Virus record (IMG/VR): IMGVR_UViG_3300046692_000385
From: a virus
Taxonomy: Duplodnaviria > Heunggongvirae > Uroviricota > Caudoviricetes
Length of the DNA stretch: 64,000 nucleotides
Direction: 5' to 3' (one strand)
The notes beneath the pieces are model-generated. The model had not been told where the DNA came from. It saw nothing but the letters and a program-made list of their open reading frames with translations, and searched no databases. Every line of letters begins with the position of its first letter. Positions within the stretch are counted from its first letter, which is position 1. Below are positions 27,205 to 51,011 of the stretch, in pieces. The position numbers and the translations under genes were made by a program.

Positions 27205-27272
27205 GTTTGCTCCTCGTGTTGTGTGAATTTCACTGACTGACCGCAATGATAGCGATCAGTCTTAGGGTTTGC

Positions 27273-27288
27273 TAGTCAGTTTTGACTG
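27273..27288. promoter_or_regulatory. motif TAGTCAGTTTTGACTG 9 nt after dnaE stop
   Basis: Upstream of 26020..27204. Confidence 0.5.
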
Positions 27289-27296: not shown

Positions 27297-30665
<3,369 letters not shown>

Positions 30666-30703
30666 CTTGGCTCCTGTGTGTTGTTGCGCATGCGTCTATT
30701 GTT

Positions 30704-31438
30704 TCAAGCGCGCGCAGGGGATAGTTCGAGGCGACCGTCGTTTTCGACGGCAATTTGAAACCGCGTCATGATCGGCCAGGCCTGGGAGACATGCGATCCG
30801 GCCGAGCCATCGCCCCAACCGAGCTCCTGCATCAAGCGCTGCTTTAGAGCGCTTCTCGTCGTGCCACCGCTGATCAGTGCGTCGCAGACAACGCGCATAA
30901 ACTCTGGCTTGCTCTGAGCGAACGTATTCACGCCGGCCTGCAAGTCTTTGCGCATTGCGTCGATCAAACCGGCTTTGATGAATCGCGCCGCGTGCTCGGC
31001 GGCTTTCTTGGGCAAGAGCGCCAGGATCTCGGCGTCGTCGTGCGTCACCGGCATCTCCACCTTCTCGACCTTCGTCGTGCGCGCGACCGGCGTCTTCGGC
31101 AGCTCGGTGCGCTTTTCAGGAGCGGCCGCGACCACCTCGTCATCATCCTGCTCGGCCATCGCCTGGGCGACCGATGTCGCCTGCATGGCGGCAGCCTGCG
31201 CGCGCAGTGCGGGTCCAGGCATCACGCCCTGCCCCTTCCGAGCCGCAGCGTGACGGCGCAGCAAGTCCTGCACGTTGACGGTGGACTGGATCGCTTCGAG
31301 GGTCTTGAGCGAGGCGCCGGCGCAGTCATCGAACACGCCACACTGACGACAGACTTCCGAGTCGTGGCTGAAGACGCTGGCGGCGGCGTAGCACCCGGGC
31401 GCCTGGATCGGTGCGACTACTTCGGCGAAAAGCTCCAT
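30704..31438 (-). CDS. hypothetical protein
   Basis: 244-aa ORF. Confidence 0.5.
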   Translation of the reverse strand: MELFAEVVAPIQAPGCYAAASVFSHDSEVCRQCGVFDDCAGASLKTLEAIQSTVNVQDLLRRHAAARKGQGVMPGPALRAQAAAMQATSVAQAMAEQDDDEVVAAAPEKRTELPKTPVARTTKVEKVEMPVTHDDAEILALLPKKAAEHAARFIKAGLIDAMRKDLQAGVNTFAQSKPEFMRVVCDALISGGTTRSALKQRLMQELGWGDGSAGSHVSQAWPIMTRFQIAVENDGRLELSPARA

Positions 31439-31448
31439 GCTGAATTCC

Positions 31449-32102
31449 TTACAGTGTGTCGATGATGTGCCGCACTTCCCGGCCGGCAGCGGCGATGTCT
31501 TTGTGGCTGAGTTCCGGCGACACGAGCCGCAGGAACTTGCAGATGAAGGAGATGTTCACGCCCGCGCCGTTGCGACAGGCGACGCCGAGACTGCGGCTGT
31601 GATTCGCGTAGGCTTCGTGCTTGGCGATCTCAGCGAGCAGCGCCGGCGGCGGGCTCACGACCCACTCGACGATCAGGCGAGCGATCGGGCTCAAGCCATC
31701 GGTCAGCTTCCCAATCGCGGCGGCCGCTTCCTGGCGCTGCTCGAGGAACTGCTCCGGGGTCTTGGCGTCGCTTGCGATCCGCTCGACTGCGGCCATGTCC
31801 TCGTCGGTCGTCAGCTCCTCGAAGCTGCGCACGCCGTTCTCGATGCGCTCCTCCTGGACGATTGCGGCGACGCGGCCGATCTTGTTGAAGGCGGCGCGGC
31901 CAAAATACGTGCAAAACTCAAAACCCTGTTCCGGGTCGAACTTGGCGTGTGCTGCGAGAAACGCCTCACGGACGTCGCCAAACACGTCGTCGTAGTCCAG
32001 CGAGGCGCCCATCCCCTGGAGTCGTCCGTAGCACTTGCGTGCTACCTGATGGACGAACCCCAGGTTGCCCGCATAGCACTCTGCTGCGTCAGTGCTATAC
32101 AT
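31449..32102 (-). CDS. sigma-70 family (ECF-like) sigma factor
   Basis: Region-2-like ECYAGNLGFVHQVARKCYG ... YFGRAAFNKIGR and C-terminal HTH LSPIARLIVEWV. Confidence 0.5.
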   Translation of the reverse strand: MYSTDAAECYAGNLGFVHQVARKCYGRLQGMGASLDYDDVFGDVREAFLAAHAKFDPEQGFEFCTYFGRAAFNKIGRVAAIVQEERIENGVRSFEELTTDEDMAAVERIASDAKTPEQFLEQRQEAAAAIGKLTDGLSPIARLIVEWVVSPPPALLAEIAKHEAYANHSRSLGVACRNGAGVNISFICKFLRLVSPELSHKDIAAAGREVRHIIDTL

Positions 32103-32108
32103 GGCGAC

Positions 32109-33302
32109 TTACCCGAAAATTCTTTGGGCAAGGCCATCGACGACCTCACGGTCGATCTTGGACAGCTTGTTGATGAAGGAGAGTTGAATCCCCTGGCGCC
32201 ACGAGCCACGCTTCACGCCGATCTTCGCTGCGTAGATCAGGGTGCGCGGCGAAATCACGTCGCTGATCTTGGCACCGTCATACGACTCGCGAACCAGAGC
32301 GGCGAAGTCCACGAGCTTGTCGGCGTCGTCAGCACGCAGCCCGCAGCGCTTTTGCAGGATCAGGCTCTCGAACTTCTTCTGCATGTATTGCTTGTGGATG
32401 ACCATGCCGAAGCGGTCGTAGTTGGCGCTGTTTTGCAGCGACGTGCCCTGATAGAGCCCCGTCTCGTCGCCCGAGCCGTTGGTGTTGCCGGTCGCGGCGA
32501 ACCGGAAGTTCGGGTGCGGCTTGATGATGCGGTTCGCGGCGTCCGCTTCCTTGATGACGAGCGGCTTGCCTTCGAGCACGGCCTGATAGACCGAGAGGAC
32601 CGACGGCAGCGTGAAGTCGTATTCGTCGGCAGCGTAGACCCAACCGTGCAGCATCGCGAGCGGCAGCGGCCCGAGTTCGAATTCGGTCGATCCGCCCTTC
32701 ACCGTCCACTGACCGACGATGTGGCTTTCTTCCGTGTTGACCGTGTGCTGGACGCGGATCATCGCGCGCCCGGTGCGTGCGCAGATTTGCTCGTAGAGCT
32801 CCGACTTGCCCGAGCCCTTGTGACCCCAGACGTAGGTCGGGATGTTGAGCTCCAGCGCGAGGATGACGTTCTTCAGTTCATCCACGTCGTAGACGTAATC
32901 GTCGGAGATGGTCGGCACCATATCCGGGTGCGTCGGCTCGGTGATCACGCTGATCGGGATCGCCTCTTTCTTCGTGGAGAGCGCGGCCGGGATCTTGCCC
33001 AGACCGAACACTTCGTGAAACGCAGCGCGCGTCGGCGTGCCCTTCGGCATGAGTGCCGTCACGCTTGCGAGTGCTGCACCACCGGTGCCTGCCATCTCGA
33101 CCGGGAGCGGTGCGCCCGCTGCCTTCTTTTCTTCGGCCTTCTTCTTCAGTTGGGCGATGGCGAGGTCCGAGAGGGTCGGCGCGTCGGGGAACTGCGCCTG
33201 GTATTCCTCGATGCTCGTTTCCGGGTGGTCGGCCTTCAGGTGGGCCTTCATCACGTGGACGTGCGCACCGCAGATTTTGCATTCGATTTTGGCGTCGCTC
33301 AT
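32109..33302 (-). CDS. CobS-like AAA+ ATPase with N-terminal C2H2-like zinc finger
   Basis: CKICGAHVHVMKAHLKADH; Walker A GHKGSGKS; MoxR/CobS topology; paired with downstream vWA protein. Confidence 0.6.
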   Translation of the reverse strand: MSDAKIECKICGAHVHVMKAHLKADHPETSIEEYQAQFPDAPTLSDLAIAQLKKKAEEKKAAGAPLPVEMAGTGGAALASVTALMPKGTPTRAAFHEVFGLGKIPAALSTKKEAIPISVITEPTHPDMVPTISDDYVYDVDELKNVILALELNIPTYVWGHKGSGKSELYEQICARTGRAMIRVQHTVNTEESHIVGQWTVKGGSTEFELGPLPLAMLHGWVYAADEYDFTLPSVLSVYQAVLEGKPLVIKEADAANRIIKPHPNFRFAATGNTNGSGDETGLYQGTSLQNSANYDRFGMVIHKQYMQKKFESLILQKRCGLRADDADKLVDFAALVRESYDGAKISDVISPRTLIYAAKIGVKRGSWRQGIQLSFINKLSKIDREVVDGLAQRIFG

Positions 33303-33391
33303 GGATTCTTCTCCGTTTAGTGGTGAGTTCTTACTGAGTGCAGCAACGTTGCTGCGATATGAGAATGATAATGTCGCTTGTTCGGGAACGC

Positions 33392-33407
33392 TAGTCAGTA
33401 ATGACTG
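33392..33407. promoter_or_regulatory. motif TAGTCAGTAATGACTG inside 38-bp extended palindrome TTCGGGAAC...GTTCCCGAA
   Basis: Upstream of CobS-like gene. Confidence 0.5.
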
Positions 33408-33427
33408 TTCCCGAACAAAAACAACAA

Positions 33428-35410
33428 TTACCCGATCAAGAGCTGGCGCAGCTCCTTCATGACCCGGGCAGGCAGCTCAGTCACGTCGTTCAGGACCATG
33501 TGGCGGTTGTAGAACTTGGTCACTTCCATCGACTCGATGCCGATGCCGACGACGCGCACACCCGCCTTCTCGATGCCCTCGATCTGCTCCTTCAGGTGAT
33601 GGCGCAGCTCCGAACCGCCCTTGTAGCAGGCCGGTGCTCCGTCGGAGAGGACGATCATGATCTTGCCCGCTTCGCGCCGAGCCATCAGGCGTCGTGCGGC
33701 GATGGCGATCGACTCCCCGTCGACGTTGTTCGCCAGGTGCCCGGAGTGCGGCAACCAGCCGAAGCGGCTCTTGACTTCAGTGGACGTCATGCGCTCGTTG
33801 AACTGTTTCAAGATCGGCATGTAGAGGCTCTCAACCCGCGAGAAGTGACCCTTGCCCTTGAGCAGCGCCTCTTCCTTCTCGATGCGCTCCCAGATACCGG
33901 ACGGCAGCCCGCCAGTGGTGAAGCAGATCACCTCGCACTTGATATTGATCCGGTCCAGCACCGATGCGAGGGCATACGCGGCCTTCGCGGCGGTGTGGAT
34001 CTTCGAGCCGCCCATCGAGCCCGACATGTCGACGACCAGCTCCACCGCGACGTCTTTGGAGGTCGACTCGTGTTTCTTGCGGAATACGCGCGTGTCACCG
34101 ACCGCCAAGCGCGAGAGATTGCCCGAGTGCATGCGCCCCGAGCGCCGGCCGTTCTCCCACACCGAGAGCGAGCGGGCGGAAATCGCGCGCTCCAGGTCTT
34201 TCTGCAGCGGCGCGACCATGTGGTCGACCGCATCGGCCATGTTCTTGACCATGCTCGCGTTGAAGCCCGCACCGATCTTGAGCGGCTCCACGAGGTCGTC
34301 GTCCTTCGAGAAGACCAGGTAGTTCGACTTGCGAGCCGCCTCGACCGCTTCGTTGGTGATCAGGTTGCTCATGGCTTCGTCGAAGCCGTTGGCGATTTCC
34401 TTGTTGAGCGCTTCGAAGAAGCCCGACGAGCTGCCGTCGGTCGAGGATTCGTTGTCCTCGTCCTCGTCGCTCTCGTCCTCGTCGCCTTCGCCGGCAGCAG
34501 CGCCCTCCTCGCCCTCGTCCTTCTCGTCGTCGCTTTCGTCGCCCTCTTCGCCTTCGCCCTCGTCCTTCTCGTCGTCTTCGTCCTTCTCGCCCTTGCCCTT
34601 GCCCGAGCCGCCCTTCTCTTCCTCCTCGTCCTTCTCTTCTTCCTCGTCGCCTTCTTCGCTCGACGAGCCACCGCTCTTGCCGCCCTTCGGTTTCGCACCG
34701 TGCTTGGCAGGAGCGGGCTTCGCCTTCTTCGGCTTCGGGGCACCGGGACCAGCGCCACCGCTACCGCCCGGTGTGCCGAGTGCGTCGAGCACTTCCTTCG
34801 CGATGGCGATTGCGTCGGTGGTGCTCGCGCAGTGTTCGATTTGCTTTTGCAGGTGCGCGATCTTGGCAACCTCGTCGGCGACCGCGGCTTCCATGTCGGG
34901 GTGATTCGACATGAACTCCTTGAAAATCTGCTGTCCAGCGAGCGCGCGGATCGCCGGGACCATCACCGACGCCTTCACGCCGTTGACGTCGCCCTTCTTG
35001 GCGGCGGCCGCGACCGTCGGCTTCGTGTATTTGTCGAGGAAGAACTTGCCCGTCACCGAAATGTTGTGGCCCGAGCCGGTGAAGCGCTGCGCCATCGCCT
35101 TTTCGATCCGGGCGTCTTCGATCAGGTTGACCATGCTGTGGAGCGTCGGGTCGGTGATCTTGCCCATCGCCTTGAAGTCGGTGAACAGGATGTGCGCGAC
35201 TTCGTGGTCGAGAAAGCCCTGGATCGCGTCGCACAGTTCGTGGCTGGCGCTATCCGGGATGAACGGCAGGTTCACGCGCTTCGGCTCACCGTCGGCGCCC
35301 GATTCCACATAGGCTTGCACGCCTTGCTGCGTGACCAAGATGCCCTTACCGGCGAGCATTTGCGTGAGCTTCACGACCGCCTCACGCATTACTGCTACAC
35401 GTTCATTCAT
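33428..35410 (-). CDS. CobT-like vWA-domain protein with long acidic low-complexity insert
   Basis: MIDAS VVDMSGSMGGS; ~100-aa Gly/Glu/Asp/Lys-rich insert. Confidence 0.6.
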   Translation of the reverse strand: MNERVAVMREAVVKLTQMLAGKGILVTQQGVQAYVESGADGEPKRVNLPFIPDSASHELCDAIQGFLDHEVAHILFTDFKAMGKITDPTLHSMVNLIEDARIEKAMAQRFTGSGHNISVTGKFFLDKYTKPTVAAAAKKGDVNGVKASVMVPAIRALAGQQIFKEFMSNHPDMEAAVADEVAKIAHLQKQIEHCASTTDAIAIAKEVLDALGTPGGSGGAGPGAPKPKKAKPAPAKHGAKPKGGKSGGSSSEEGDEEEEKDEEEEKGGSGKGKGEKDEDDEKDEGEGEEGDESDDEKDEGEEGAAAGEGDEDESDEDEDNESSTDGSSSGFFEALNKEIANGFDEAMSNLITNEAVEAARKSNYLVFSKDDDLVEPLKIGAGFNASMVKNMADAVDHMVAPLQKDLERAISARSLSVWENGRRSGRMHSGNLSRLAVGDTRVFRKKHESTSKDVAVELVVDMSGSMGGSKIHTAAKAAYALASVLDRINIKCEVICFTTGGLPSGIWERIEKEEALLKGKGHFSRVESLYMPILKQFNERMTSTEVKSRFGWLPHSGHLANNVDGESIAIAARRLMARREAGKIMIVLSDGAPACYKGGSELRHHLKEQIEGIEKAGVRVVGIGIESMEVTKFYNRHMVLNDVTELPARVMKELRQLLIG

Positions 35411-35432
35411 TCGAATTCCCCTCTTGTGTGTG

Positions 35433-35447
35433 TGTCAATAGTGACTG
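35433..35447. promoter_or_regulatory. variant motif TGTCAATAGTGACTG (operator-position copy)
   Basis: Lies after candidate -10 TAGAAT upstream of CobT-like gene. Confidence 0.4.
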
Positions 35448-35486
35448 AACAAACGTAATTCTAGAGAACGATCTCAGGGTGTGCAA

Positions 35487-35502
35487 CAGTCATTATTGAC
35501 TA
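35487..35502. promoter_or_regulatory. motif CAGTCATTATTGACTA abutting TTGCAC-N17-TAGAAT
   Basis: Candidate sigma-70-like promoter for CobT-like gene. Confidence 0.5.
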
Positions 35503-35559
35503 CCTGCACAGGCAAACAAAAAGCGGCCGAAGCCGCTTTCCGATGCTACGGGCGAGGGA

Positions 35560-35787
35560 CTAGCAGAGGCTGATGAGCGCGGTGGCCCCTGAGTCAGTGC
35601 TGATCAACAACATCAGGCCGAGCGTGGGGTGCAGGACCTTGTTGATCATTGCCGAGCCGAGGTCCATGCGACTGACCTGCGCGCCTTGCTCCATATAGTC
35701 CACGTATTGATCCTGCTCGATCATGCTGCCCAGTTGTGCCATCGAAATTCCCTCTTGCTGCGCGACCGCGCTTTGACCCGTCAACAT
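35560..35787 (-). CDS. hypothetical small protein
   Basis: 75-aa ORF, lower-GC island. Confidence 0.3.
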   Translation of the reverse strand: MLTGQSAVAQQEGISMAQLGSMIEQDQYVDYMEQGAQVSRMDLGSAMINKVLHPTLGLMLLISTDSGATALISLC

Positions 35788-35839
35788 CGTATTGAACTCC
35801 CGAAAGTTTTATTCAGTTTGATTCGCTGCTGAAACATTA

Positions 35840-35855
35840 TAGTCAGTGCTGACTA
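35840..35855. promoter_or_regulatory. perfect-arm motif TAGTCAGTGCTGACTA in divergent regulatory region
   Basis: First of a cluster of AGTCAG / CTGACT half-sites (35840-36065) ending with TGACTAGCTATAAT before HTH gene 36073. Confidence 0.5.
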
Positions 35856-36072
35856 TTTTTCACACAATTTATCGTCTTTTCTTAGCCACGCGGGATTGCG
35901 CGGTCGGTAAAAATGTATAGAATCCAAGACATAGGGAGTGTTCGTCAGTGCTGACACACGGGTATAGACGAGCGCCGTCCCACCAAGTCAGTCAATGATT
36001 ACTATCTGACTAGCTATAATCGATTCGAACAGAGTTACCGGGGCCGTCCCGCAGTCAGATAAGGAGAAAAAC

Positions 36073-36495
36073 ATGACCACGAAGAAGCAGCACAAAGAAG
36101 CCATGAGCGTCGCCGAATACTTCGACGCCCAGGTCAACCTACGCCAGATGACGCTCGCTCAGTTGAGCAAGGACATTGGGGGCGTGCTCAAGCCAAACAT
36201 GTTGTCGATGATTCGAGCGGGCCACACAAAGGTGCCGCTGATTCACGTAGGCCGCATTGCCCGAGCGCTCGGCATCGACCCGATGTTTCTGATGAAGATG
36301 GCGCTGCAGGAATACCAACCGGACAACTGGAAGGCGATTCAGGAAGTGTTCGGCGACCAGCCGGTGCTGACCCGCAATGAGATTGCCCTCATCAACGCGA
36401 TCCGCGAAGCCAACCCGAACAATCCGCGACTCAACGACGCGGACGCCGAAAAGTTCGCGAAGGTGGTGGCAACGTTGCATGGCGATAACGAGTGA
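36073..36495 (+). CDS. XRE-family HTH transcriptional regulator
   Basis: MTLAQLSKDIGGVLKPNMLSMIRAGHTKVP HTH; upstream 230 bp packed with motif half-sites; AAGGAGAAAAAC RBS. Confidence 0.6.
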   Translation: MTTKKQHKEAMSVAEYFDAQVNLRQMTLAQLSKDIGGVLKPNMLSMIRAGHTKVPLIHVGRIARALGIDPMFLMKMALQEYQPDNWKAIQEVFGDQPVLTRNEIALINAIREANPNNPRLNDADAEKFAKVVATLHGDNE

Positions 36496-36529
36496 AGTCG
36501 ATTTCATAGCGGCACGAGCAGCAAACTGG

Positions 36530-36554
36530 AAGCACCCTTCGGGGTGCTTTTTTT
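36530..36554 (+). terminator. rho-independent terminator
   Basis: GCACCC-uucg-GGGUGC followed by UUUUUUU. Confidence 0.6.
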
Positions 36555-36722
36555 ACGCCTGAACATTCAGGGGTTGGGCTCGGGACTGTATATCCATACA
36601 GTGTCGAGCCAGTGAGGAGATTGTAGGATCAAAGACAACGAAAGACAACCACTAGTTGCCATTTTGTTAGTGAATGTTTCAGAGCCTGTGACGAAAATCA
36701 CACAGCCCCAATCTGGCAGAAT

Positions 36723-37400
36723 TTACCTGATCGCCGCCGAATCCTTTAAGCTACGGCGGTCCGACCGTGTAATAACGCCCACAACACGGATCGGTTGGCC
36801 GAACGTGTCCTTGAAAACCTCGAATACTCCCTCTAGGTTTACCCCTATGTCACGCTTGTGTTCACCCTCGAAAAATACACGTGTCAATCCTTCTTGAAGC
36901 ATGCGATTGTAAAGTGCATCAACCACGGGTTTATTCTTTTCTGACAATAGGGCGCGGAAGTTTTCATGCGTTGCTTCCATACCAGGGGGTGCACAGAGGT
37001 GCTCACGTGCTAACGGACTCCAGTGGCAAACACCCGTTAGCAGGTTTTCCTCGATCACCCCGGCGTCTAATAGATTGATGGCAATGTGGAGGCGTCGTTC
37101 GCTGGCGATACAAGCTTCTAAGTAGGCTCGCCTCTTCTGAGCAAAGGCGTCATCAGGCTCTGGCTGCACTGAACGTAGTGCCTCATCCCCGTAACCTAAC
37201 CAGACCCAATTGACGTCCAAGTATTTGGAGACATCTCTCAAGCTCTTGTAATTTATTGCCCCACCCTTCAACCACTTTCCGACAGCTTGCGGAGATACTC
37301 CAATCGCTCTGGACAAAGATGCGGCAGTCTCTTGCTTGGCTTCTAGAAGCGAGCGTAGTCGTTCTGGGAAAGTGGCCTCTTTCTCAGTGGCGTTGGTCAC
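36723..37400 (-). CDS. HTH (XRE/cI-like) regulator with uncharacterised C-terminal domain
   Basis: N-terminal LRSLLEAKQETAASLSRAIGVSPQAVGKWLKGG. Confidence 0.5.
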   Translation of the reverse strand: MTNATEKEATFPERLRSLLEAKQETAASLSRAIGVSPQAVGKWLKGGAINYKSLRDVSKYLDVNWVWLGYGDEALRSVQPEPDDAFAQKRRAYLEACIASERRLHIAINLLDAGVIEENLLTGVCHWSPLAREHLCAPPGMEATHENFRALLSEKNKPVVDALYNRMLQEGLTRVFFEGEHKRDIGVNLEGVFEVFKDTFGQPIRVVGVITRSDRRSLKDSAAIR

Positions 37401-37658
37401 AGCTTCATCCTTTATTGTTCTCTCAACACGTTTGGCTTCACTACTATAGGGATAGTGATATTACTGTAACTAAATACACTTAAAAGCACTTTGGTATAAC
37501 GTGCTTTTTGTTTTTTGTCTGATAGATTCTACCCTCAGTTGGTGCACTGGAAGATCGCACGCTCCCGAGGTTGCCCTCTATATAACAATTCCCATATCTC
37601 GTTAAATCCCGAGCATTATAGAAAGCCAACTATTAGCGCACCCACCTTGCTTGCTACG

Positions 37659-37698
37659 TTGGTATTTTGGTATCTAGATACCTTGGTATCTTGGTATG
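37659..37698. repeat. candidate partition (centromere-like) site: TTGGTAT heptads around 14-bp palindrome GGTATCTAGATACC
   Basis: Four TTGGTAT copies within 40 bp plus a fifth near 37487, ~100 bp upstream of parA in AT-rich spacer. Confidence 0.4.
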
Positions 37699-37787
37699 AA
37701 GCAAGATGGCACACTTGAGAAGTTACTTGAAGACGAGCCATGTATGAATTAGGCTATGGACAAAACTTGTGATGGAGAGGGCAATCT

Positions 37788-38441
37788 ATGTCCGTTGTTA
37801 TGGTGGGAACTGAGAAGGGAGGTGTGGGCAAATCTACCTTTACACAGAACTTGGCTTCTATCCGCGCATCGCTCAAACGGCGAGTCGCCGTGTTCGACCT
37901 GGACGGGCAGAACAGCACGGCGAAGTGGGCTTCGCGTCGGGCCGATAATCCCGCCCTGGCGCCGGTCCACGTCGAGCGGTGGGAGCCGCGAACGCCGATC
38001 ACGAAGGAAGAGTTTGGCGCCGTCATCGCGCGCCTGATTGACACCTACGACGACGTTTTTATCGATGTCGGTGGGCGTGATTCGGACGGCTTTCAATGGG
38101 GCTTAGGCGTCGCTGACCGGGTGATTGCACCGCTCGTGCCGTCGCAGATGGACCTAGACACTGTGCCCGATCTTCACGCTCTCGTTGGCACCTATGCGAA
38201 GAAAATTAACCTGAGTGTGGTGCTCAATATGGCCGACAAACGCAAGCGATTCACGAAGGCGATGGTGCAGAAAATGGAGCCCTACGCCGATCGTCTCCCG
38301 CTCATGAGTCACATGGTCGCGCCGCGAGAAAGCTACAAATTCGCCAACGCTCAGGGCAGGGGAGTGGGCGAGCTTTCGGGTTCCGAGTGGGATGCCAGTG
38401 CGGCCAACGAAATGAAAGACCTATATTTGGGAACGTTCTAA
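37788..38441 (+). CDS. parA: ParA-family partition ATPase
   Basis: Deviant Walker A KGGVGKST; GGAGAGGG RBS. Confidence 0.8.
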   Translation: MSVVMVGTEKGGVGKSTFTQNLASIRASLKRRVAVFDLDGQNSTAKWASRRADNPALAPVHVERWEPRTPITKEEFGAVIARLIDTYDDVFIDVGGRDSDGFQWGLGVADRVIAPLVPSQMDLDTVPDLHALVGTYAKKINLSVVLNMADKRKRFTKAMVQKMEPYADRLPLMSHMVAPRESYKFANAQGRGVGELSGSEWDASAANEMKDLYLGTF

Positions 38442-38443
38442 TC

Positions 38444-38821
38444 ATGAGCAAAGCCAACGTGATGTCGGAGCCAAAGAGTAAGCAGTATTTGGCGGACCTG
38501 GAGGCGGTCGACACCTCGCGCTCGGCGCCTGCACCTGCTAACCCGCCCGAGAGGATTGAGGACGAGGAGGTGGTAGCACCGGCGGTAGTGACAGAGGGGA
38601 GGGCGCTTGCTCGCCCGGGGAGGGGCGTGGACTTACAAGCCCTGCGCGCCGCGCTGCCGAAGAAGGAAGCTCCGGTGCAGCAGCCGGTTCGTATTCCGCC
38701 GTCGTTGAAGGAGGACCTGACGCTGATCTGTTTCGCGCTTGGTAAGACCAAGAACGACTTCATCGTGGACATACTGCGAAAGGAAGTCGCGCGTGAGAAG
38801 AAGCGCATGGGCCTGGACTGA
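38444..38821 (+). CDS. ParG-like ribbon-helix-helix partner protein
   Basis: Start MSKANVM right after parA stop; C-terminal RHH RIPPSLKEDLTLICFALGKTKNDFIVDILRKE. Confidence 0.5.
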   Translation: MSKANVMSEPKSKQYLADLEAVDTSRSAPAPANPPERIEDEEVVAPAVVTEGRALARPGRGVDLQALRAALPKKEAPVQQPVRIPPSLKEDLTLICFALGKTKNDFIVDILRKEVAREKKRMGLD

Positions 38822-38844
38822 CCACCCTCCTGCAGACTGCTTTT

Positions 38845-39125
38845 CGGGTTTTGAGATAGGGGTCTATTGGGAGGTTTTCCGGGTTGGATCGGGTTTTGAG
38901 ATAGGGGTCAGGGTAGTTAGAAGATAGTTATAAAGGATTAGGGCCTGTGGAAAGGACTTGTAAGTCACTGAAAACATAAGCCTTTTTTTGCATGCCTTCT
39001 ATCTCAAACCCCGACAATTCCTATCTCAAACCCCGTTAGCGGCTATCTCAAAACCCGAGTTTCTATCCCAAACCCCGAACGAAAAATATCTCAAAACCCG
39101 ATAGTTATGCACATCTCAATCCGAG
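38845..39125. repeat. iteron-type replication origin: 2 inverted + 6 direct copies of TATCTCAAA(A/C)CCCG at ~22-bp spacing
   Basis: Direct copies at 39000, 39022, 39044, 39064, 39087, 39112 (last degenerate); inverted copies at 38845 and 38890; flanked by 16-bp inverted repeat GCCTTTTTTTGCATGCC (38980) / GGCATGCAAAAAAA (39145). Confidence 0.75.
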
Positions 39126-39147
39126 CCCTGCGTGCTACTTTCTCGGC

Positions 39148-39969
39148 ATGCAAAAAAACACCGCCATCGACATCCTGAAACGCCGAGAAGCCACGCAGCG
39201 AAAGGCATCGACGGCGCCCGTCCAACTGGAGTTCTGGTCCGAGAAGGTTCGTGGTCTGCCTAACACGCTCGCGCGCTGCGCGCTATTTACCGCGGCCGGC
39301 AAGAAAGAGGATCGGGCCAAATTCAGCGAGCATGTCGTTTTCTCGACCAAGGGTTTCACACTGACCTACACCGGCGAGGAACTACGTCAGGATGACCAGG
39401 ACGTTTTCCTGCAGCTCGTCCACATGACGCGCGGCATTCCCATCGGCCACAAGCTGAACGTCACGGGCTACACCATTCTGGGGGCGCTCAGTTGGGGCAA
39501 GGGCGGCAAAGACTACGCGCGCCTTCGCGAGAGCATTGAGCGGCTCTCCGACACCAGGATAAAGCTCGAAGGCGAGAACATACGCTTCAAGGGCGGATTG
39601 CTGCCCTCGATGACCCAAGTCGGTGACTCGGCTGCGAGTCGGTTTCGACTGTGGCTGGACCCGAGCGTGATCGAACTCTTTGGCGAGAACGAGTATTCAC
39701 TGGTCGACTGGGAGGATCGGCTCTCGCTGTCGGCCCTGGCGAAGTGGCTCCACAGCTTCTACTTCACGCACCGAGAGCCGCACCCATATCGAATCAAAAC
39801 CATTCACGAGCTTTGTGGCAGCCGGCAGAAGGAGCTCTGGGCCTTTAAGCAGAAGCTCAAGTTGGCGCTCGATGAACTGGTGCTGATTGGCTTTCTCGCC
39901 AAATACGAAATCCTGGGCGATCTGCTGGCCGTGCGCCGGCAGTATGCGGTTGCGGCACTTCGCAACTAA
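39148..39969 (+). CDS. TrfA-like plasmid replication initiator
   Basis: LPNTLARCALFTAAG segment typical of TrfA family; immediately downstream of iterons. Confidence 0.55.
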   Translation: MQKNTAIDILKRREATQRKASTAPVQLEFWSEKVRGLPNTLARCALFTAAGKKEDRAKFSEHVVFSTKGFTLTYTGEELRQDDQDVFLQLVHMTRGIPIGHKLNVTGYTILGALSWGKGGKDYARLRESIERLSDTRIKLEGENIRFKGGLLPSMTQVGDSAASRFRLWLDPSVIELFGENEYSLVDWEDRLSLSALAKWLHSFYFTHREPHPYRIKTIHELCGSRQKELWAFKQKLKLALDELVLIGFLAKYEILGDLLAVRRQYAVAALRN

Positions 39970-40348
39970 CCGTCCAGCGCCCGACCCTACTTATGCACAG
40001 AAACGGTGGACAACCCTGTGGAGCAATGATCGATGCTGGTCGACGTCTCCCCGATGCGTGAGCGCGGCAAGGCACTGCCTCAACACGCCGTGCAGAGCGG
40101 CCCGGCGGTCCACGGCGATCTTGTGATCGGCCAGGAGAAATCCTCCGCACTCAACCGCTACACCAACATCGCACGCTTCCAGACGGCAGGCGCCACCGAT
40201 CCGCAGCCACTTCCGTCGCTTCACGACGCCGCGCTTTCCTGGATGGGTCCGCTTGGGTTCGTCCTGACGGGCGTGGAATTCGTCGACGGCACTGCTTACT
40301 CACAGTCTTGGTGGTGCCGTCCGAGCTAGACGGAGGCCCGACGGGATC

Positions 40349-40813
40349 TTGCGCGGACCACCGGAGATTGCAATGGATCTACTGAACCTACTCGAAGGCG
40401 TCGCGGCAGTCTTAGCCATTTACATCTCAGTTGGGAAACTCCAAAGAGGGCTCTTAAAAAACTGGCTCACTGCCTGGCGCATCATGGCTAGCGTTGGGGT
40501 CGTCGCCGTCTGTGGGTGGATGCTGGTTTTCCAGGTGACCGGCAATATCGACGAAATAATTCACTATCCGCGCGCGGGCCTGTTTCGCAGCCTATCCGTC
40601 GCCGCGCTAGTGATCTGGGCAGCGGTCGTGACGGTCTGGGGCACCTGGAAGCCCTACCACGTCAAGACGATGAACATTCAGGAGAGGCGCTGGCACTTCG
40701 GAATCATGTTCTTGGTGTGCGTTCTCATCGTAGTGGCCGCGAAGATTCCACGCTGCTCAGGCAGTGCCTTATACGATTCTGCATGGGGAGTCTGGTGGTG
40801 CCAGCAGGGCTAG
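40349..40813 (+). CDS. membrane protein
   Basis: 154 aa, 4 predicted TM helices. Confidence 0.4.
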   Translation: MRGPPEIAMDLLNLLEGVAAVLAIYISVGKLQRGLLKNWLTAWRIMASVGVVAVCGWMLVFQVTGNIDEIIHYPRAGLFRSLSVAALVIWAAVVTVWGTWKPYHVKTMNIQERRWHFGIMFLVCVLIVVAAKIPRCSGSALYDSAWGVWWCQQG

Positions 40814-41463
40814 GCCTTGCCGCTGCGGCCCCAGCCGAGCGCTGCTGGGCGGCTGTAGTTGGCGAACTTCACCTTGAGCCAGTCTCTTGAGCGCCCGCGC
40901 TGATACGGCGAGTCGAGTCGCTTGCCGACCATACCCTCGAAATCGTGCTCCTTGACCTGCTCGAAGACCCATGCGCCGGCCGCCACGATGCCGGTTACGT
41001 AGACCAACACGGCCGTATTGTCGAAGGAGTCGCGCAGCGCCTGCTTGCGCTCGACAAGCGGCAGGTGCCGAATGTCGCGATCGCCATCGGCGAGCATGTC
41101 AAACACGTAGAGGCGGGCCGGGTGCAGCCTCATCGCGGCCCGCACGTTCGCTGCGACCGAGGTCCGCGCCCGAATTTGCAGGCGCTCGAATGAGGACTGC
41201 CCAGTCGGCTCATCCACAGTGAGCTCCGCGTCCCAGATGAAATCGCCGGGCACCTGCGCGACCGCCGCGAGCACGTCAGGAAACGAGCGGTTCATGAGGT
41301 TGCCCTGCCGCGAAATTAGCTCGACGCGCGCGCCAACCTTCCGAACCAGACAGCGATGGCCGTCGTATTTAAGTTCGAACAACCAGTCTTCGCGGGAAAA
41401 CGGTGCGCGGTTGAGCGTGGCGAGCATCAGGTCGCTGGCGTCGATGAGCGGAATGCCACTCAC
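40810..41463 (-). CDS. ATP-dependent DNA ligase nucleotidyltransferase domain only (no OB domain)
   Basis: Motif I KYDGHR, III FIWDAEL, IV LYVFDML, V EGMVGK; 217 aa. Confidence 0.6.
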   Translation of the reverse strand: MSGIPLIDASDLMLATLNRAPFSREDWLFELKYDGHRCLVRKVGARVELISRQGNLMNRSFPDVLAAVAQVPGDFIWDAELTVDEPTGQSSFERLQIRARTSVAANVRAAMRLHPARLYVFDMLADGDRDIRHLPLVERKQALRDSFDNTAVLVYVTGIVAAGAWVFEQVKEHDFEGMVGKRLDSPYQRGRSRDWLKVKFANYSRPAALGWGRSGKA

Positions 41464-41642
41464 GGCTTTGGCAATCGGGCGCTGACATAGGCGAGCTTCG
41501 CCCAGGCGTTGTCAGGATCGCACCCGGAATAGGCGCAGAAATGCTCGAAGTCGTCGAACACGGTATGGCCCGCGTCGTTGGTTTGCAACGTGCGGCCATC
41601 AATGACTTTCTTCAGCAATTCGACTGGATCGCCATAGCACAT
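41460..41642 (-). CDS. hypothetical small protein
   Basis: 60 aa, coupled to ligase-domain gene. Confidence 0.3.
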   Translation of the reverse strand: MCYGDPVELLKKVIDGRTLQTNDAGHTVFDDFEHFCAYSGCDPDNAWAKLAYVSARLPKP

Positions 41643-41744
41643 AATGACCCCTCCGGTTGACGCGAACGGCCAAGCAAACCCGGTGCCCGCGCATCAAAAT
41701 GATCCGCCCCAAAACGTTGCTAATGAAACGCCCGAGGATGAACT

Positions 41745-41969
41745 ATGAAAACTTGGACCTACGAGGAAGTCACGGCGGAAGCCGAGCGCCAAATTAAACG
41801 CGGGGTGGAGGATGCGGAAACGGCCGACCTTCAGTCAACAAAGAACATGAATGCAGATTTCGCTTTCGGCGCATATTTATTCTGGCTGGGACTGACAGCC
41901 GAGGTCGCGACGATTGAAGATCAACGGCGCTTAGAGGCGTTAGCTAAGAGTTCCGAGAAAAGACGATAA
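41745..41969 (+). CDS. hypothetical small protein
   Basis: 74 aa. Confidence 0.3.
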   Translation: MKTWTYEEVTAEAERQIKRGVEDAETADLQSTKNMNADFAFGAYLFWLGLTAEVATIEDQRRLEALAKSSEKRR

Positions 41970-42050
41970 TCAGTATTATGTCAACCACGGTGCGCGGTGA
42001 CGCGCCCTGGCTGCTCGCGCTATGATGAAAGCCTCACAGTGAGGTGTCTC

Positions 42051-42245
42051 ATGGGAAATATGTGGACTGAGCCTGCCGTCAGCGGGCACGACACGAAGGA
42101 AGAAGCCGAAGCCTACGACAAGTGGTTCCGCGAAGAGGTGCGGCTCGCTCTCGAAGAGGATGCGCCGAGCATTCCGCACGACGAGGCTGTTGCAATGTTG
42201 CGCGCCCGGGCCGCGGAGCGAAGGAAGGCGCAGAATGATCGTTGA
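42051..42245 (+). CDS. type II antitoxin (ParD/RelB-like)
   Basis: Start MGNMWTEP with GTGAGG RBS; 11-nt overlap with toxin gene. Confidence 0.5.
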   Translation: MGNMWTEPAVSGHDTKEEAEAYDKWFREEVRLALEEDAPSIPHDEAVAMLRARAAERRKAQNDR

Positions 42246-42507
42246 CTGGCGCCCGCGCGCCTTGCGCCGCCTTTACCAGATCCACGAACACATCAGCCAA
42301 GACAGCATCGACGCCGCAGATTTCGTGCAGGAGACGATTATTTCGGCGGCGGCCGATCTGCCCGCCCATCTCTACGTCTACCGCGAAGGTCGTGTGCCAA
42401 ACACGCGGGAGATGGTCGTGCTGCCGAACTACATCATCGTCTATCGGATCAAGAAGGATCGAATCGACATCGTGAACGTCCTGCACTCGCGGCGACGCTA
42501 CCCATGA
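42235..42507 (+). CDS. RelE/ParE-family toxin
   Basis: MIVDWRPRAL...IIVYRIKKDRIDIVNVLHSRRRYP ParE/RelE fold signature. Confidence 0.65.
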   Translation: MIVDWRPRALRRLYQIHEHISQDSIDAADFVQETIISAAADLPAHLYVYREGRVPNTREMVVLPNYIIVYRIKKDRIDIVNVLHSRRRYP

Positions 42508-42698
42508 CCGACGAAGAATGGCAACAGGCTTTGGCGAAGCTTGATCAGATCGATGGCAAGCTTGAAGAGATCGCTGGCGAATTTGAGGCGATGCAGCGCG
42601 ACTGGCGTCAGAGACTTACCAAGATCGACGCCACTCTGACACGCATCGAAGTTAGTTCGAGAGCCACATCAGGCGCTCGACCTCGACGTCCAGCTTGA
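42504..42698 (+). CDS. hypothetical coiled-coil small protein
   Basis: 64 aa. Confidence 0.3.
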   Translation: MTDEEWQQALAKLDQIDGKLEEIAGEFEAMQRDWRQRLTKIDATLTRIEVSSRATSGARPRRPA

Positions 42699-43284
42699 TC
42701 ACTGTGCGGTAGGCGCGGCGCAGCTCGGGCCACTCCATATCGAACACGTCCGCGAGCTCCAGCGATAGACCGAAAAGCGGTGCGACCGTGCCGTTGAGCT
42801 CCTGCCAGAAGACATACGGGGTTCGCAGGTGGCGCGGGGTGAGCCGCAGCACGTCGAGCGCCAGTTTCGAGAGCGTGCCATTTGTGCGAAGCGTCTGGGC
42901 CCGGTCCCACTTGAGGGTGATCAGGTCGTCGATCTCCAGGTTCGCCTCGAGGCCGAACAGCACCGCTGCCGGCCGGGGCCGGGCAAGCTGCTCTAAACCG
43001 GTTCGAATGTCGCCAAGCGTGATGCGCTCTTGCGGAATCGCGAAGCGCATGAGCGGCACTTCTGGCACCTCGCCCCGTGCGTGTGCTGCGCGCACCTGTG
43101 CAAGCACCGTCTCAACGATCAGCTTCCCCTCTTCACCGCGGTTGTCCATATTCAGACGCGTGAGAAAGGCGTGAAGCTGCATCGGGTGCGCTCGTTCGAG
43201 CGCCGTTTCCCAGATGGGGGAATCTGTAAGGGCTGATTTGCCCAGGAGAGGCGTGATCTCTCCGACGTCTTTGAGCGCCTGCAT
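42652..43284 (-). CDS. hypothetical protein
   Basis: 210-aa ORF. Confidence 0.45.
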   Translation of the reverse strand: MQALKDVGEITPLLGKSALTDSPIWETALERAHPMQLHAFLTRLNMDNRGEEGKLIVETVLAQVRAAHARGEVPEVPLMRFAIPQERITLGDIRTGLEQLARPRPAAVLFGLEANLEIDDLITLKWDRAQTLRTNGTLSKLALDVLRLTPRHLRTPYVFWQELNGTVAPLFGLSLELADVFDMEWPELRRAYRTVIKLDVEVERLMWLSN

Positions 43285-43320
43285 GAATGTTCTCCAGAGG
43301 CGCTCAAAGATACCACAGGG

Positions 43321-43635
43321 TCAATCCTGAAAGGTATGGCGCGCGATGACCGTGCGCAGGTGACTCTGGAGCTCGAGGGTCTCCTTGTGAAGCTCGACAA
43401 GTCGGTCCTGGCGCACCTGCCCTTCCGCGACCAGCCGGTTCAAGAGATCGGCATGCTCTCGCGTGCGCCTGCTCATGAGCCGCTGGTAGAGCCTGCCGGT
43501 CAAGAAAAACGCGGCAAGCTGAGTGAGCCAGATGAGGCTGAAGATCATCACCATCTCAGTGCCGCTCTGCGCGCGCTGAGCGATGGCGTAGCTGAGCGCG
43601 ATGTTGGCGGCCACCCAAATCAGTGTAAAGCTCAT
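43321..43635 (-). CDS. membrane protein
   Basis: 104 aa, 3 TM segments. Confidence 0.4.
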   Translation of the reverse strand: MSFTLIWVAANIALSYAIAQRAQSGTEMVMIFSLIWLTQLAAFFLTGRLYQRLMSRRTREHADLLNRLVAEGQVRQDRLVELHKETLELQSHLRTVIARHTFQD

Positions 43636-44300: not shown

Positions 44301-44508
44301 TGACTTTCTCCTGCGGCGCCACTTTGAGCGCCAGTTTGTTCGTGATGACCTCCAGGAAGCGGCACATCGTGATCAGGTCCACCTCCTGGTTCTGGTTGTT
44401 GACGACGACGATGCGCCCGCCGATCATGCCGGGCCCGGCCGGCAGAATGTGGTGCCGCCAGGGCATCGTCGCTTGCAGCGCCTTGAATTCCTTCTCATCC
44501 ATTTCCAT
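44290..44508 (-). CDS. hypothetical small protein
   Basis: 72 aa. Confidence 0.3.
   Translation of the reverse strand: MEMDEKEFKALQATMPWRHHILPAGPGMIGGRIVVVNNQNQEVDLITMCRFLEVITNKLALKVAPQEKVNAD
44291..44305. promoter_or_regulatory. motif TAGTCAGCATTGACT overlapping gmk-like start codon
   Basis: GGAGAAAGTCAATGCTGACTAAG on minus strand. Confidence 0.4.
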
Positions 44509-50954: not shown

Positions 50955-51011
50955 GAAGCTCTCCAACACGGGTATGGGTAGAAAATGAATGTCACTCTGA
51001 CGCAAACATTA

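Follow-up and report, generated by a model that had tools for sequence, protein, structure and literature searches.

The 285-bp gap at 35788-36072 of the window, by which we mean the whole 64,000-nucleotide (nt) stretch of viral DNA analysed here (IMG/VR record IMGVR_UViG_3300046692_000385, Caudoviricetes), separates two divergent open reading frames (ORFs), one of 75 amino acids (aa) on the minus strand (35560-35787) and one of 140 aa on the plus strand (36073-36495), the latter encoding a helix-turn-helix (HTH) protein of the XRE family that we call XRE140. Judging by its genes, the window is part of an SSU5/pHCM2-like phage-plasmid of ~115 kb: the order DNA polymerase III alpha-(sigma-like)-CobS-CobT-small ORF-XRE is in place, together with T4-like recombination and nucleotide-metabolism genes, siphovirus tail genes, and a plasmid replication and partition module with a TrfA homologue (PF07042, 1.6e-28), a ParA homologue (phrog_164, 2.6e-30) and iterons. 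Nearly every gene lies on the minus strand; other lytic-type genes are those for ribonucleotide reductase subunits, thymidylate synthase, a RecA/UvsX-like recombinase, a gp32-like single-stranded DNA-binding protein (SSB) and SbcCD-like nucleases, and the window further encodes a DnaB-like helicase, a primase, a ligase, PhoH and a tail fibre. A plus-strand island at ~36-42 kb, with a G+C content of 0.51-0.57 against ~0.60, carries the genes for XRE140, ParA, an Arc-like protein and TrfA, and inside it, on the minus strand, lies a second HTH gene (36723-37400) with a 225-aa product. An earlier note on this DNA had proposed XRE140 as the prime candidate for binding, genome-wide, a palindrome whose half-sites are densest in this gap, with the 225-aa protein as the alternative; both ORFs exist as described, and both products match Pfam HTH_3.

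The half-site density is indeed highest here. The gap holds seven GTCAG/CTGAC half-sites, where the window as a whole averages 0.66 per 285 bp and the next-best 285-bp interval has four; of the longer AGTCAG/CTGACT it holds five, against two in the next-best. Its anatomy (Table 1) was read as conserved blocks, with free sequence between, from an alignment with the IMG/VR contigs L002 and L003, which are the closest relatives (XRE proteins 75-77% identical) together with a Caballeronia fragment, L001. Putative operators lie at the early lytic promoter (O1) and at the gene of the candidate repressor itself (O2 and O3), and are conserved in L002 and L003. The position of O1 is kept in L002 (TAGTCATCGCTGACTA) and L003 (TAGTCATCACTGACTA), with invariant arms and a free centre (GTGC, TCGC, TCAC); the promoter that it abuts, P_L, would drive the 75-aa gene and, we infer, the CobT-CobS-sigma-DNA polymerase operon. 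On the XRE side, O2 lies ~15-26 nt downstream of the start point deduced from a rightward TAGAAT box, a candidate distal XRE promoter that falls below the promoter-scan threshold, and the block GTATAGAATC is conserved in the window, L002, L003 and L001. O2 has a counterpart, GTCAGCACTGAC, at the equivalent position of L002 and L003 and a degenerate copy, GTCAACGCTGAT, in L001, while O3 has the counterpart GTCAATTGTTAC in L003. In the two perfect sites by the XRE gene the centre is G+C-rich (GTGC) and the arms are of 5 bp, or of 7 bp at O1 with its TA flanks; lytic sites have mostly A/T-rich centres. The lone half-site before the XRE Shine-Dalgarno sequence is of doubtful relevance because it is not conserved in L002, and the AGTCAGTGCTGA copy inside the 75-aa gene may be conserved only for the peptide it encodes, LISTDSG. 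The perfect-arm palindrome that the earlier note had reported at 35840 and its pair near 35945, whose core repeats that of O1, were both recovered; every string of its third group, assigned to 36030-36066, is present in the gap, with GCAGTCAGATAAGGAG (36051-36066) alone in the place given, AAGTCAGTCAATGA lying at 35985-35998 and CTATCTGACTAGCTATAAT at 36002-36020.

Some elements of the region stand beside these operators. The block CCACGCGGGATTGCG (35887-35901), nearly invariant in L002 and L003, falls outside the operator model. A G+C-rich palindrome at 36037-36052 (ACCGGGGCCGTCCCGC; GCGGGACGTCCCGC in L002 and L001), in the 5' untranslated region of the XRE gene, is kept in all four close relatives; it may form a hairpin in the RNA or be bound by a second protein. 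Between the convergent XRE and 225-aa HTH genes lies a near-consensus LexA (SOS) box, CTGTATATCCATACAG (36586-36601), the only CTGT-N8-ACAG in the window, whose arms are conserved in L002 (CTGTGCATTCATACAG) and L003 (CTGTGAATACATACAG) with a variable interior; promoter-like hexamers surround it on both strands, including a minus-strand TTGTCT-17-TACAAT directed antisense into the XRE gene, and the box may be an SOS input to the switch.

The motif recurs far beyond the gap. AGTCA-N4-TGACT occurs 18 times in the window, against 0.05 copies expected, and GTCAGNNCTGAC at up to one mismatch gives 26 matches (shuffles, 2.7 +/- 1.6). A set of ~29 sites in 64 kb, defined as GTCA-N4-TGAC with one mismatch allowed and restricted to sites showing the flanking signature, has the size of a dispersed operator set (at least 15-30 cognate sites over a genome), and nearly all of these sites are in short gaps between minus-strand lytic genes. 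The commonest form is GTCAGTTTTGAC, with nine exact plus-strand copies and two more as GTCAAAACTGAC, and the consensus on the coding (minus) strand is AAyA-GTCA-AAAC-TGAC-TAt, where the A before GTCA and the T after TGAC, both outside the search pattern, are each found in 26 of 28 sites. The palindrome is two-fold symmetric, with both arms equally conserved. Sites with an asymmetric centre are co-oriented in 16 cases out of 18, with the T-rich centre on the plus strand, and for each of the oppositely oriented exceptions, 15093 and 58813, there is a copy in the usual orientation 22-27 bp away. A perfect TATAAT directly follows the sites at 10675, 15120, 25989, 35842 and 51014, and TACAAT the one at 47810; sites 20162 and 23555 directly precede a Shine-Dalgarno sequence or start codon, and many sites, in the window and in the Rhizobium relative RHEph10, are 2-40 nt upstream of such signals. 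The distant site that the earlier note had placed at 51012 is real (TAGTCAGTTTTGACTA, 51012-51027). The largest stretch free of sites, 35991-44293 (8.3 kb; P ~0.018 under a uniform model), is exactly the plasmid-maintenance module, with the second HTH gene, parA, the Arc-like gene, the iterons and trfA.

A near-identity DNA search of 30000-42000 against phage and plasmid collections gave no match, and relatives were reached through proteins only. Those of the RecA-like and XRE proteins fall in a ~110-kb SSU5/pHCM2-like group that includes Stenotrophomonas BUCTxx99, Xanthomonas JGB6, Pseudomonas nickie, Rhizobium RHEph10, B1VFA, and Klebsiella and E. coli phage-plasmids such as Cyrano. As to the host of the window element, its relatives point to Burkholderiaceae. 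The order DNA polymerase III alpha-sigma-like-CobS-CobT-75-aa/small ORF-XRE is the same in Cyrano, RHEph10, B1VFA, pJN2-26 and two further loci, L018 (from a Burkholderia vietnamiensis sample) and L019. A uniform scan of eight genomes for palindromes (5-bp arms, gaps 0-12, ~100 kb per genome), whose shuffled controls gave z 3.7-5.1, found a dispersed palindrome in five of five XRE-positive genomes: the window (AGTCA-N4, 18 vs 0.05 expected, z 30.5), RHEph10 (AGTCA-N8, also AATCA-N4; 6 vs 0.02, z 10.6), B1VFA (TAAGT-N8, equal to AGTAA-N4-TTACT; 23-25 vs 0.03, z 43.7), Cyrano (AACAA-N1, 12 vs 0.32, z 14.9) and pJN2-26 (AAACA-N3, 14 vs 0.24, z 18.7). By contrast, none of the three XRE-negative genomes, BUCTxx99 (z 5.1), nickie (z 4.8) and JGB6 (z 5.7; a fragmented, frameshift-ridden record used for the palindrome count alone), had an enriched palindrome. 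These three are lytic-type genomes without the plasmid module. ParB-like genes are annotated in lytic relatives too, a distribution that speaks against a ParB-like protein as the binder. Because lytic relatives express the same genes with neither the XRE gene nor the palindrome, XRE140 is not a required activator.

The form of the palindrome also holds across distant members of the group. RHEph10, whose XRE protein is 30-35% identical, has 17 A[AG]TCA-N4-TGA[CT]T sites; B1VFA has 23 AGTAA-N4-TTACT sites, one symmetric base change from the window operator; L018 carries attataGTCAnnnnT[G/T]ACTTA, i.e., AGTCA-N4-T[G/T]ACTTA; and L019 has AGTCActgaTGACTTA, of the AGTCA-N4-TGACT type, upstream of its XRE gene. 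Rhizobium and Burkholderia relatives thus share the putative operator type AGT[C/A]A-N4-T[G/T]ACT. The sites cluster, in all lineages examined, at the promoter region of the XRE gene itself: at 34476, 35043, ~35660 (by eye) and 35955 around RHEph10 gp041 (35193-35594), at 94113, 94716 and 94992 around B1VFA gene 128, and at 9814 and 9933 in L018, the latter just after a TATAAT box; GGTAAGTGCTTACC in Cyrano and GGTAAGTACTTACC in pJN2-26 lie just upstream of the XRE start. In B1VFA the palindrome follows a conserved GCGCTATAA box at a distance of 2-4 nt and closely precedes the Shine-Dalgarno sequence, which on this reading of the box is a classic repressing position. There, as at the window sites that abut a -10 box on its upstream side, a bound protein would block RNA polymerase. 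Relative to the -10-like box, the palindrome is on the upstream side in the window and on the downstream side in B1VFA and at the XRE promoter of L018; in RHEph10 it is by the Shine-Dalgarno sequence. Such variation among lineages argues that the palindrome is a module separate from the promoter. As a side observation, a conserved, promoter-like consensus, TCCCaa-N11-GCGCTATAA, precedes many of the B1VFA palindromes (loci L014/L015), and its unusually short spacing suggests a phage-specific promoter class. A division of the recognition helices into two classes (K/Q with AGTCA, N with TAAGT) was considered and rejected: L018 combines a GYSNPN helix with AGTCA sites, and B1VFA TAAGTAA-N4-TTACTTA, read in the right register, is AGTAA-N4-TTACT, a single symmetric change.

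XRE140 is a borderline match to Pfam HTH_3 (PF01381; E 7e-5, 23.2 bits against a gathering score of 23) and matches PHROG families of transcriptional regulators and repressors (2.8e-6); a sequence search against the PDB returned nothing meaningful. Its AlphaFold2 model has a mean predicted local distance difference test score (pLDDT) of 83, exceeding 90 over residues 11-90. The N-terminal five-helix domain (residues ~10-75) superposes on 434 Cro (2cro/3cro; Foldseek) with a root-mean-square deviation (rmsd) of 1.7 A over 65 residues, a target-normalised TM score of 0.83 and 29% identity, and also on 434 repressor and P22 c2 (rmsd 1.6-1.7 A for the latter), so that the modelled fold is that of a 434-Cro-type HTH. 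The C-terminal half has three more helices, as in Stl, SinR and DdrO, and Pfam and NCBIfam detect no peptidase S24 domain of the kind that marks the self-cleaving LexA/cI class; XRE140 is not a repressor of that class. The family comprises ~150 clusters, almost all on contigs of 100-120 kb, and an identical protein is present on a 115.6-kb metagenomic contig. In lysogens of Cyrano, transcription of the homologue CYRAN_45, annotated as a putative repressor, exceeds the prophage background ~10-fold, and ciprofloxacin gives a 39-fold induction of virions (PMC9928086).

Taken together, the co-occurrence of gene and palindrome, the conservation of the operators, their clustering at the XRE promoter, their avoidance of the plasmid module, the predicted fold and the expression of the Cyrano homologue favour XRE140 as the prime candidate binder, as the earlier note had proposed, and we think it probable that XRE140 is the lysogeny-maintenance repressor of this phage-plasmid, acting at ~29 control sites of lytic genes. 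We infer from these features that the protein, with its 434-Cro-type HTH and helical C-terminal domain, binds the 14-16-bp (T)AGTCA-N4-TGACT(A), most likely as a dimer, and that the sign of regulation is negative. At the six sites abutting TATAAT or TACAAT, the palindrome would fill positions ~-13 to -28, and bound repressor would block RNA polymerase; sites with no recognisable promoter could act as roadblocks to read-through transcription, in the manner of the stoperators of phage L5. O1 would turn off P_L, and O2 and O3, in or just downstream of the XRE promoters, would provide negative autoregulation. In 434 operators, central bases that are not contacted affect binding. By analogy, site centres may set a hierarchy of affinities, in which the G+C-rich autoregulatory centres may bind more weakly, so that the gene would be throttled only when repressor is abundant. 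Since there is no site in the plasmid module, its genes (second HTH, ParA, Arc-like, TrfA) and iterons would stay out of this control, and the module would remain expressed in the lysogen.

Several observations weigh against this interpretation. For this element, support for binding and regulation by XRE140 consists of sequence and a modelled fold. Co-occurrence cannot separate the XRE gene from other temperate-specific genes such as its 75-aa neighbour, and the attempt to relate recognition helix to half-site by covariation failed, since L018 has a B1VFA-like GYSNPN helix and AGTCA sites. No convincing -35 element was found at any TATAAT- or TACAAT-linked site, which can be read as activator dependence. 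Asymmetry is seen both at the centre, which reads AAAC on the coding strand, and in the flanks (AACA vs TA), and a symmetric dimer does not require the co-orientation seen in 16 of 18 sites. Terminator-like G+C hairpins with T-runs (10621-10646 and 12192-12216, minus strand) follow sites 10675 and 12220, 3-25 nt downstream, and the order site, hairpin, next gene is seen also at several RHEph10 sites (473, 2751, 7575, 13523). Three or four sites (3688, 7672, 33394, 55662) are the tip of a longer inverted repeat, and at 7672 and 33394 the longer stem shows apparent compensatory changes between the window and L002. The CobS-upstream site, 33394, is enclosed by an outer repeat of 9-10 bp in the window (33384-33415), L002 (7329-7360) and L003 (7310-7341), differing in sequence with pairing kept (GTTCGGGAAC/GTTCCCGAAC vs GCTCGGGAAC/GTTCCCGAGC; fold -19.8 kcal/mol). 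Stem tips and terminator-like hairpins hint at a role at the level of RNA or of a DNA hairpin. Finally, Cyrano (loci L010 and L011) and pJN2-26 (L016 and L017) carry a second, more abundant dispersed palindrome, AGAAAACAA-N-TTGTTT (11-14 copies), which usually has a GATAAT-like box on one side and the Shine-Dalgarno sequence on the other; since it differs from the TAAGT-type sites by the XRE gene, it probably marks the regulon of a second regulator, and because the spacing of the TAAGT-type sites differs from N4, the extension of the model to enterobacterial relatives is less secure.

The most direct challenge to a DNA-bound repressor is that the motif acts at the RNA or single-strand level, as a hairpin AGUCA-AAAC-UGACU between cistrons and in 5' untranslated regions of lytic transcripts (a processing site, stabilising element, translational operator or antitermination signal, perhaps through the Hfq-domain protein or an N-like protein), the cluster by the XRE gene being incidental. 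Co-orientation of 16 of the 18 orientable sites with transcription, a conserved asymmetric loop, the many sites 2-40 nt before start codons or Shine-Dalgarno sequences, the longer stems with their pair-preserving outer repeat at 33394, the hairpins after 10675 and 12220 and the presence of a phage Hfq-domain gene would all fit such a role. However, the core hairpin, at -4 kcal/mol on the coding strand, is weak, the Rfam scan gave no match, and in RHEph10 the arm positions (A/G vs C/T) assort independently (6, 4, 4 and 3; Fisher P = 1), with A-C mismatches as frequent as under independence, as expected of degenerate half-sites for a protein and not of a base-paired hairpin. Moreover, the motif is found in both orientations, and within a divergent promoter region, at O2, O3 and the inverted pairs 15093/15120 and 58813/58835; near-perfect -10 boxes adjoin six sites, which places these upstream of the transcription start; and lytic relatives with the same genes do without the element. 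All of this makes an RNA-level role unlikely. A part in a phage-specific promoter, read by the extracytoplasmic function (ECF)-like sigma factor or dependent on an activator, strikes us as quite unlikely. It would account for the missing -35 elements, and ~8 sites have TnAAA(n)GCC 15-18 nt upstream, comparable with the ECF spacing TGAAAA-N16-GTCAAA; the sigma-like gene is conserved in the phage group and a promoter-like box adjoins the B1VFA palindromes. Yet BUCTxx99 keeps a syntenic sigma-like homologue (E 3e-7) with no dispersed palindrome, a -10 or -35 element does not need two equally conserved arms, and the position of the palindrome relative to -10-like boxes varies by lineage. A conventional sigma-70 promoter on the plus strand, using the TTGACT of the motif, was rejected: the downstream '-10' would be TTTAGA or TTTTCA, and the neighbouring genes are all on the other strand.

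The remaining alternatives keep a DNA-binding protein and change its identity. Another temperate-specific product (for example the 75-aa neighbour, in the role of a second, Cro-like ligand) or a host factor is very unlikely to be the binder. The 75-aa gene does share the phyletic pattern and fixed position of the XRE gene, and it stands first in the operon that O1 would control, as Cro does in lambdoid switches; its product, however, has no DNA-binding domain detectable by Pfam, PHROG or NCBIfam, and a low-confidence model of it contains no HTH. As for the host, the IHF consensus (WATCAANNNNTTR) fails at the GTCA and TGAC positions, the sole LexA-type box of the window lies elsewhere, and over hosts that range from Enterobacteria to Rhizobium and Burkholderia the motif goes with the phage gene, not with the host. 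Comparison by eye with the IHF, NrdR and LexA consensus sequences gave no fit to the motif. Least probable of all, in our estimation, is the 225-aa HTH protein. It matches Pfam HTH_3 and HTH_26, scores better than XRE140 against PHROG repressors, is conserved beside the XRE gene in L002 and L003, weakly resembles DicA and the N-terminal domain of LexA, and has a LexA-box-like site just past its 3' end. But tblastn finds no homologue in SSU5-, RHEph10- or B1VFA-type phages, giving only matches of 25-29% coverage to generic HTH proteins of unrelated Pseudomonas and Klebsiella phages; the gene is absent from L018, which has AGTCA-type sites; its own promoter region (37401-37787) has no motif copy; and it lies in a low-G+C segment (0.51 vs ~0.60) that suggests recent acquisition. 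The alternative offered by the earlier note is accordingly disfavoured.

Seen as a repressor-operator network under XRE140, the system recalls several known circuits. Prophage P1 is a plasmid silenced by one repressor, C1, at more than 12 operators over ~100 kb, including one at its own gene; P1, however, has operators that are asymmetric 17-mers, a repressor with no relation to the XRE/HTH_3 fold family and, in addition, Coi, Lxc and the immI antisense system. One repressor with many dispersed sites on a plasmid prophage is common to both, whereas site symmetry and protein family differ. (Cra/Tci-like annotations are present in Cyrano.) The gp71 system of L5 and other Cluster A phages likewise has one small HTH repressor and 20-30 scattered sites in short intergenic gaps, oriented with transcription, of which few are true promoter operators, the early lytic promoter included, and most are not associated with promoters. 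Its 'stoperators', at intergenic sites lacking promoters, were shown to act as roadblocks, some Cluster A phages are extrachromosomal prophages bearing parA, and motif and repressor diverge together in that cluster (PMC6550527). L5 differs in having asymmetric 13-mers bound by a monomer with no cooperativity, as opposed to 14-16-bp palindromes that would fit a dimer; no sequence relation between the repressors was found, the hosts here are Proteobacteria, and the roadblock function is here a proposal. Because its sites are two-fold symmetric, the window system is an analogue and not a member of the gp71 or C1 families. The 434, P22 and lambda switches share the DNA-binding fold, 14-16-bp palindromes with a non-conserved centre, and three sites in a divergent region over a lytic promoter and the repressor's own promoter; unlike the ~29 repeats here, however, their operators are confined to one or two control regions, and neither an S24 domain nor a recognisable Cro was found in our case. 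The closest systems are therefore, functionally, L5/Cluster A gp71 and P1 C1 and, structurally, the 434, P22 and lambda switches. Of the analogues named in the earlier note, cI/Cro stands and, like P1 C1 and L5 gp71, is a better one than KorA/KorB. KorA/KorB of the IncP plasmid RK2 does share short palindromic operators at many promoters and a TrfA-type replicon, but XRE140 has no ParB/KorB or KorA domain, no site falls in 35991-44293 and the TrfA gene has its own iterons; the comparison fails because the motif avoids plasmid genes.

Table 1. Genes, control elements and motif copies of the window, in order of position.
Feature	Position	Strand	Sequence	Context
Distal site	3688-3699		GTCAGTAATGAC	Intergenic; nested in longer palindrome with extra GTCA/TGAC half-sites
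Distal site	5176-5187	minus	ATCAGTTTTGAC	
Distal site	7672-7683	minus	ATCAGTTTTGAC	Intergenic; 9-bp outer inverted repeat
Distal site	10675-10686	minus	GTCAGTTTTGAC	Then TATAAT directly on minus strand
Distal site	12220-12231	minus	GTCAGTTTTGAC	Between nrdA and nrdB homologues
Distal site	14550-14561	minus	ATCAGTTCTGAC	Upstream of nrdA homologue
Distal site	15093-15104	plus	GTCAAAACTGAC	Reversed; paired with site 15120, 27 bp away
Distal site	15120-15131	minus	GTCAGTTTTGAC	Then TATAAT
Distal site	20162-20173	minus	GTCACTTTTGAC	Directly upstream of Shine-Dalgarno of SbcD-like gene
Distal site	20629-20640		GTCAGGGATGAC	
Distal site	22443-22454		GTCAGGGCCGAC	
Distal site	23555-23566	minus	CTCAATTTTGAC	2 nt upstream of RecA/UvsX-like gene
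Distal site	25989-26000		GTCAGGATTGAC	Then TATAAT; upstream of gp32-like SSB gene
Distal site	27275-27286	minus	GTCAGTTTTGAC	Just downstream of DNA polymerase III alpha gene (stop 10 nt away, 27297); 28 nt upstream of next gene, 26020-27246; syntenic copies in L002, L003
DNA polymerase III alpha gene	27297-30665	minus		
CobS homologue	32109-33302	minus		
Distal site	33394-33405		GTCAGTAATGAC	Upstream of CobS, inside 10-bp outer inverted repeat; syntenic in L002, L003
CobT homologue	33428-35410	minus		
Motif site	35434-35445		GTCAATAGTGAC	Upstream of CobT
Motif site	35489-35500		GTCATTATTGAC	Between 75-aa gene and CobT
75-aa gene	35560-35787	minus		First gene of leftward operon; constant XRE neighbour in temperate relatives
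Fourth copy of repeat	35592-35603		AGTCAGTGCTGA	Inside 3' end of 75-aa gene; repeat family D3; present in L002, L003
P_L -10 box	35836-35841	minus	TATAAT	Promoter scan GTGAAA-16-TATAAT, 10/12 matches; invariant in L002, L003
O1	35840-35855		TAGTCAGTGCTGACTA	7-bp-arm palindrome; abuts -10 box of predicted leftward lytic promoter
Candidate distal XRE promoter, -10-like box	35918-35923	plus	TAGAAT	With TTGCGC, 35896-35901
O2	35944-35955		GTCAGTGCTGAC (also GTCAGYRCTGACA)	Exact repeat of O1 core; longer string CGTCAGTGCTGACAC, 35943-35957
O3	35991-36002		GTCAATGATTAC	Imperfect, one mismatch to GTCA-N4-TGAC; over -35 region of putative proximal XRE promoter
Extra half-site	36006-36012		CTGACTA	In spacer of proximal XRE promoter; pairs with AGTCAG, 35986-35991
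Putative proximal XRE promoter, -10 box	36015-36020	plus	TATAAT	Invariant in L002, L003; TATTAT in L001
Lone half-site	36053-36058		AGTCAG	Just before XRE Shine-Dalgarno
XRE-family HTH gene	36073-36495	plus		140 aa; candidate master repressor
Intrinsic terminator of XRE gene	36532-36554	plus	GCACCC-TTCG-GGGTGC, then T7	Equivalent hairpins in L002, L003
Distal site	44293-44304		GTCAGCATTGAC	At gene junction
Distal site	47810-47821	minus	GTCAGTTTTGAC	Then TACAAT; just downstream of primase gene (stop 19 nt away, 47841); 73 nt upstream of next gene, 47275-47736
Distal site	51014-51025	minus	GTCAGTTTTGAC	Then TATAAT; upstream of Hfq-domain gene
Distal site	52992-53003	minus	CTCAGTTTTGAC	Upstream of PhoH-like gene
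Distal site	55162-55173	minus	GTCAGGTTTGAC	
Distal site	55662-55673	minus	GTCAGTTTTGAC	Inside 10-bp-arm perfect palindrome GAAACAGTCA-AAAC-TGACTGTTTC
Distal site	58813-58824	plus	GTCAAAACTGAC	Reversed; paired with site 58835, 22 bp away
Distal site	58835-58846	minus	GTCAGTTTTGAC	
Distal site	59231-59242	minus	GTCAGTTCTGAG	13 nt downstream of TATAAT box

Some further features of the genes around the switch deserve description. The 75-aa protein has no Pfam or PHROG match, a word-indexed search returned itself alone, and its single-sequence AlphaFold2 model is poor (pLDDT 58), with one helix, three strands and no HTH. In the plasmid module, five direct repeats with a period of ~22 bp (TATCTCAAACCCCGA; 38997-39101) directly precede the TrfA-like gene (39148-39969), and two inverted copies lie farther upstream (38844-38864 and 38889-38909); by its sequence this is an iteron-type plasmid origin. 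The drop in G+C content to 0.51 (against ~0.60) together with the change in sign of the AT skew at 36000-38000, the segment with the 225-aa HTH gene, suggests later acquisition of part of the module. There are two homologues of ATP-dependent DNA ligase: a full-length one of 465 aa (44916-46313, minus strand) among the lytic genes, and one of 217 aa with the adenylation domain only (40810-41463, minus strand) inside the plasmid module. The nrdB homologue (10914-12231 region) has an ORF that starts with GTG at 12011 and matches the profile from residue 42 (profile position 54), while a different frame offers a good Shine-Dalgarno sequence and ATG ~170 nt farther upstream; this could reflect a frameshift, a mis-start or the presence of a small leader ORF. 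The Hfq-domain protein (50520-51005, minus strand; Pfam Hfq 1.4e-8, NCBIfam Hfq 4.6e-7, the latter below the cut-off) is encoded directly downstream of a TATAAT-linked motif site, and L018 has a homologue at the same position (17571-17927). The ECF-like sigma homologue (31449-32102, minus strand), between CobS and the DNA polymerase, matches Sigma70_r2 (8e-5) and sigma70-ECF (2.5e-8), both just under the cut-offs, and is kept in RHEph10 (gp045), B1VFA (gene 132) and, weakly, BUCTxx99. L018 also encodes, at 18852-19100 beside PhoH, a protein of the Acb2/Tad1-hairpin family (a sponge against the cyclic oligonucleotide-based antiphage signalling system, CBASS, and Thoeris). Rfam and tRNA scans of the whole window gave no matches.

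A much broader proposal can be made from the same material, one that we put forward tentatively and regard as somewhat doubtful taken as a whole. One XRE family would be the universal immunity repressor of the whole SSU5/pHCM2-like supergroup, from phage-plasmids of Salmonella, Klebsiella and E. coli to those of Rhizobium and Burkholderia. Its dozens of palindromes would be both operators and orientation-biased roadblocks, a dimeric Gram-negative counterpart of the stoperator; SOS input would come through the LexA-type box at 36586-36601 and not through self-cleavage of the repressor; and variation of the operator (AGTCA, AGTAA, enteric spacing) would define immunity groups within a set of elements that is in part of clinical relevance.

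Literature searches on repressors and operators of SSU5-type elements gave no description of a repressor-operator network, of silencing or of a lytic switch. The principle of the circuit is already established in other phages; what is newly proposed is a repressor-operator set for SSU5-like phage-plasmids, a widespread group that is common among Enterobacteria, with some members there carrying resistance genes, and is found also in rhizobia and Burkholderia. A candidate repressor gene, the operator AGT[C/A]A-N4-T[G/T]ACT and a map of ~29 sites together make a testable model of the switch, and the conserved LexA-type box adds a testable route of SOS induction. The compact repressor-operator pair could be usable as a genetic tool in Burkholderia-type hosts and, if the model is true, the immunity groups of these phage-plasmids would be predictable from sequence.

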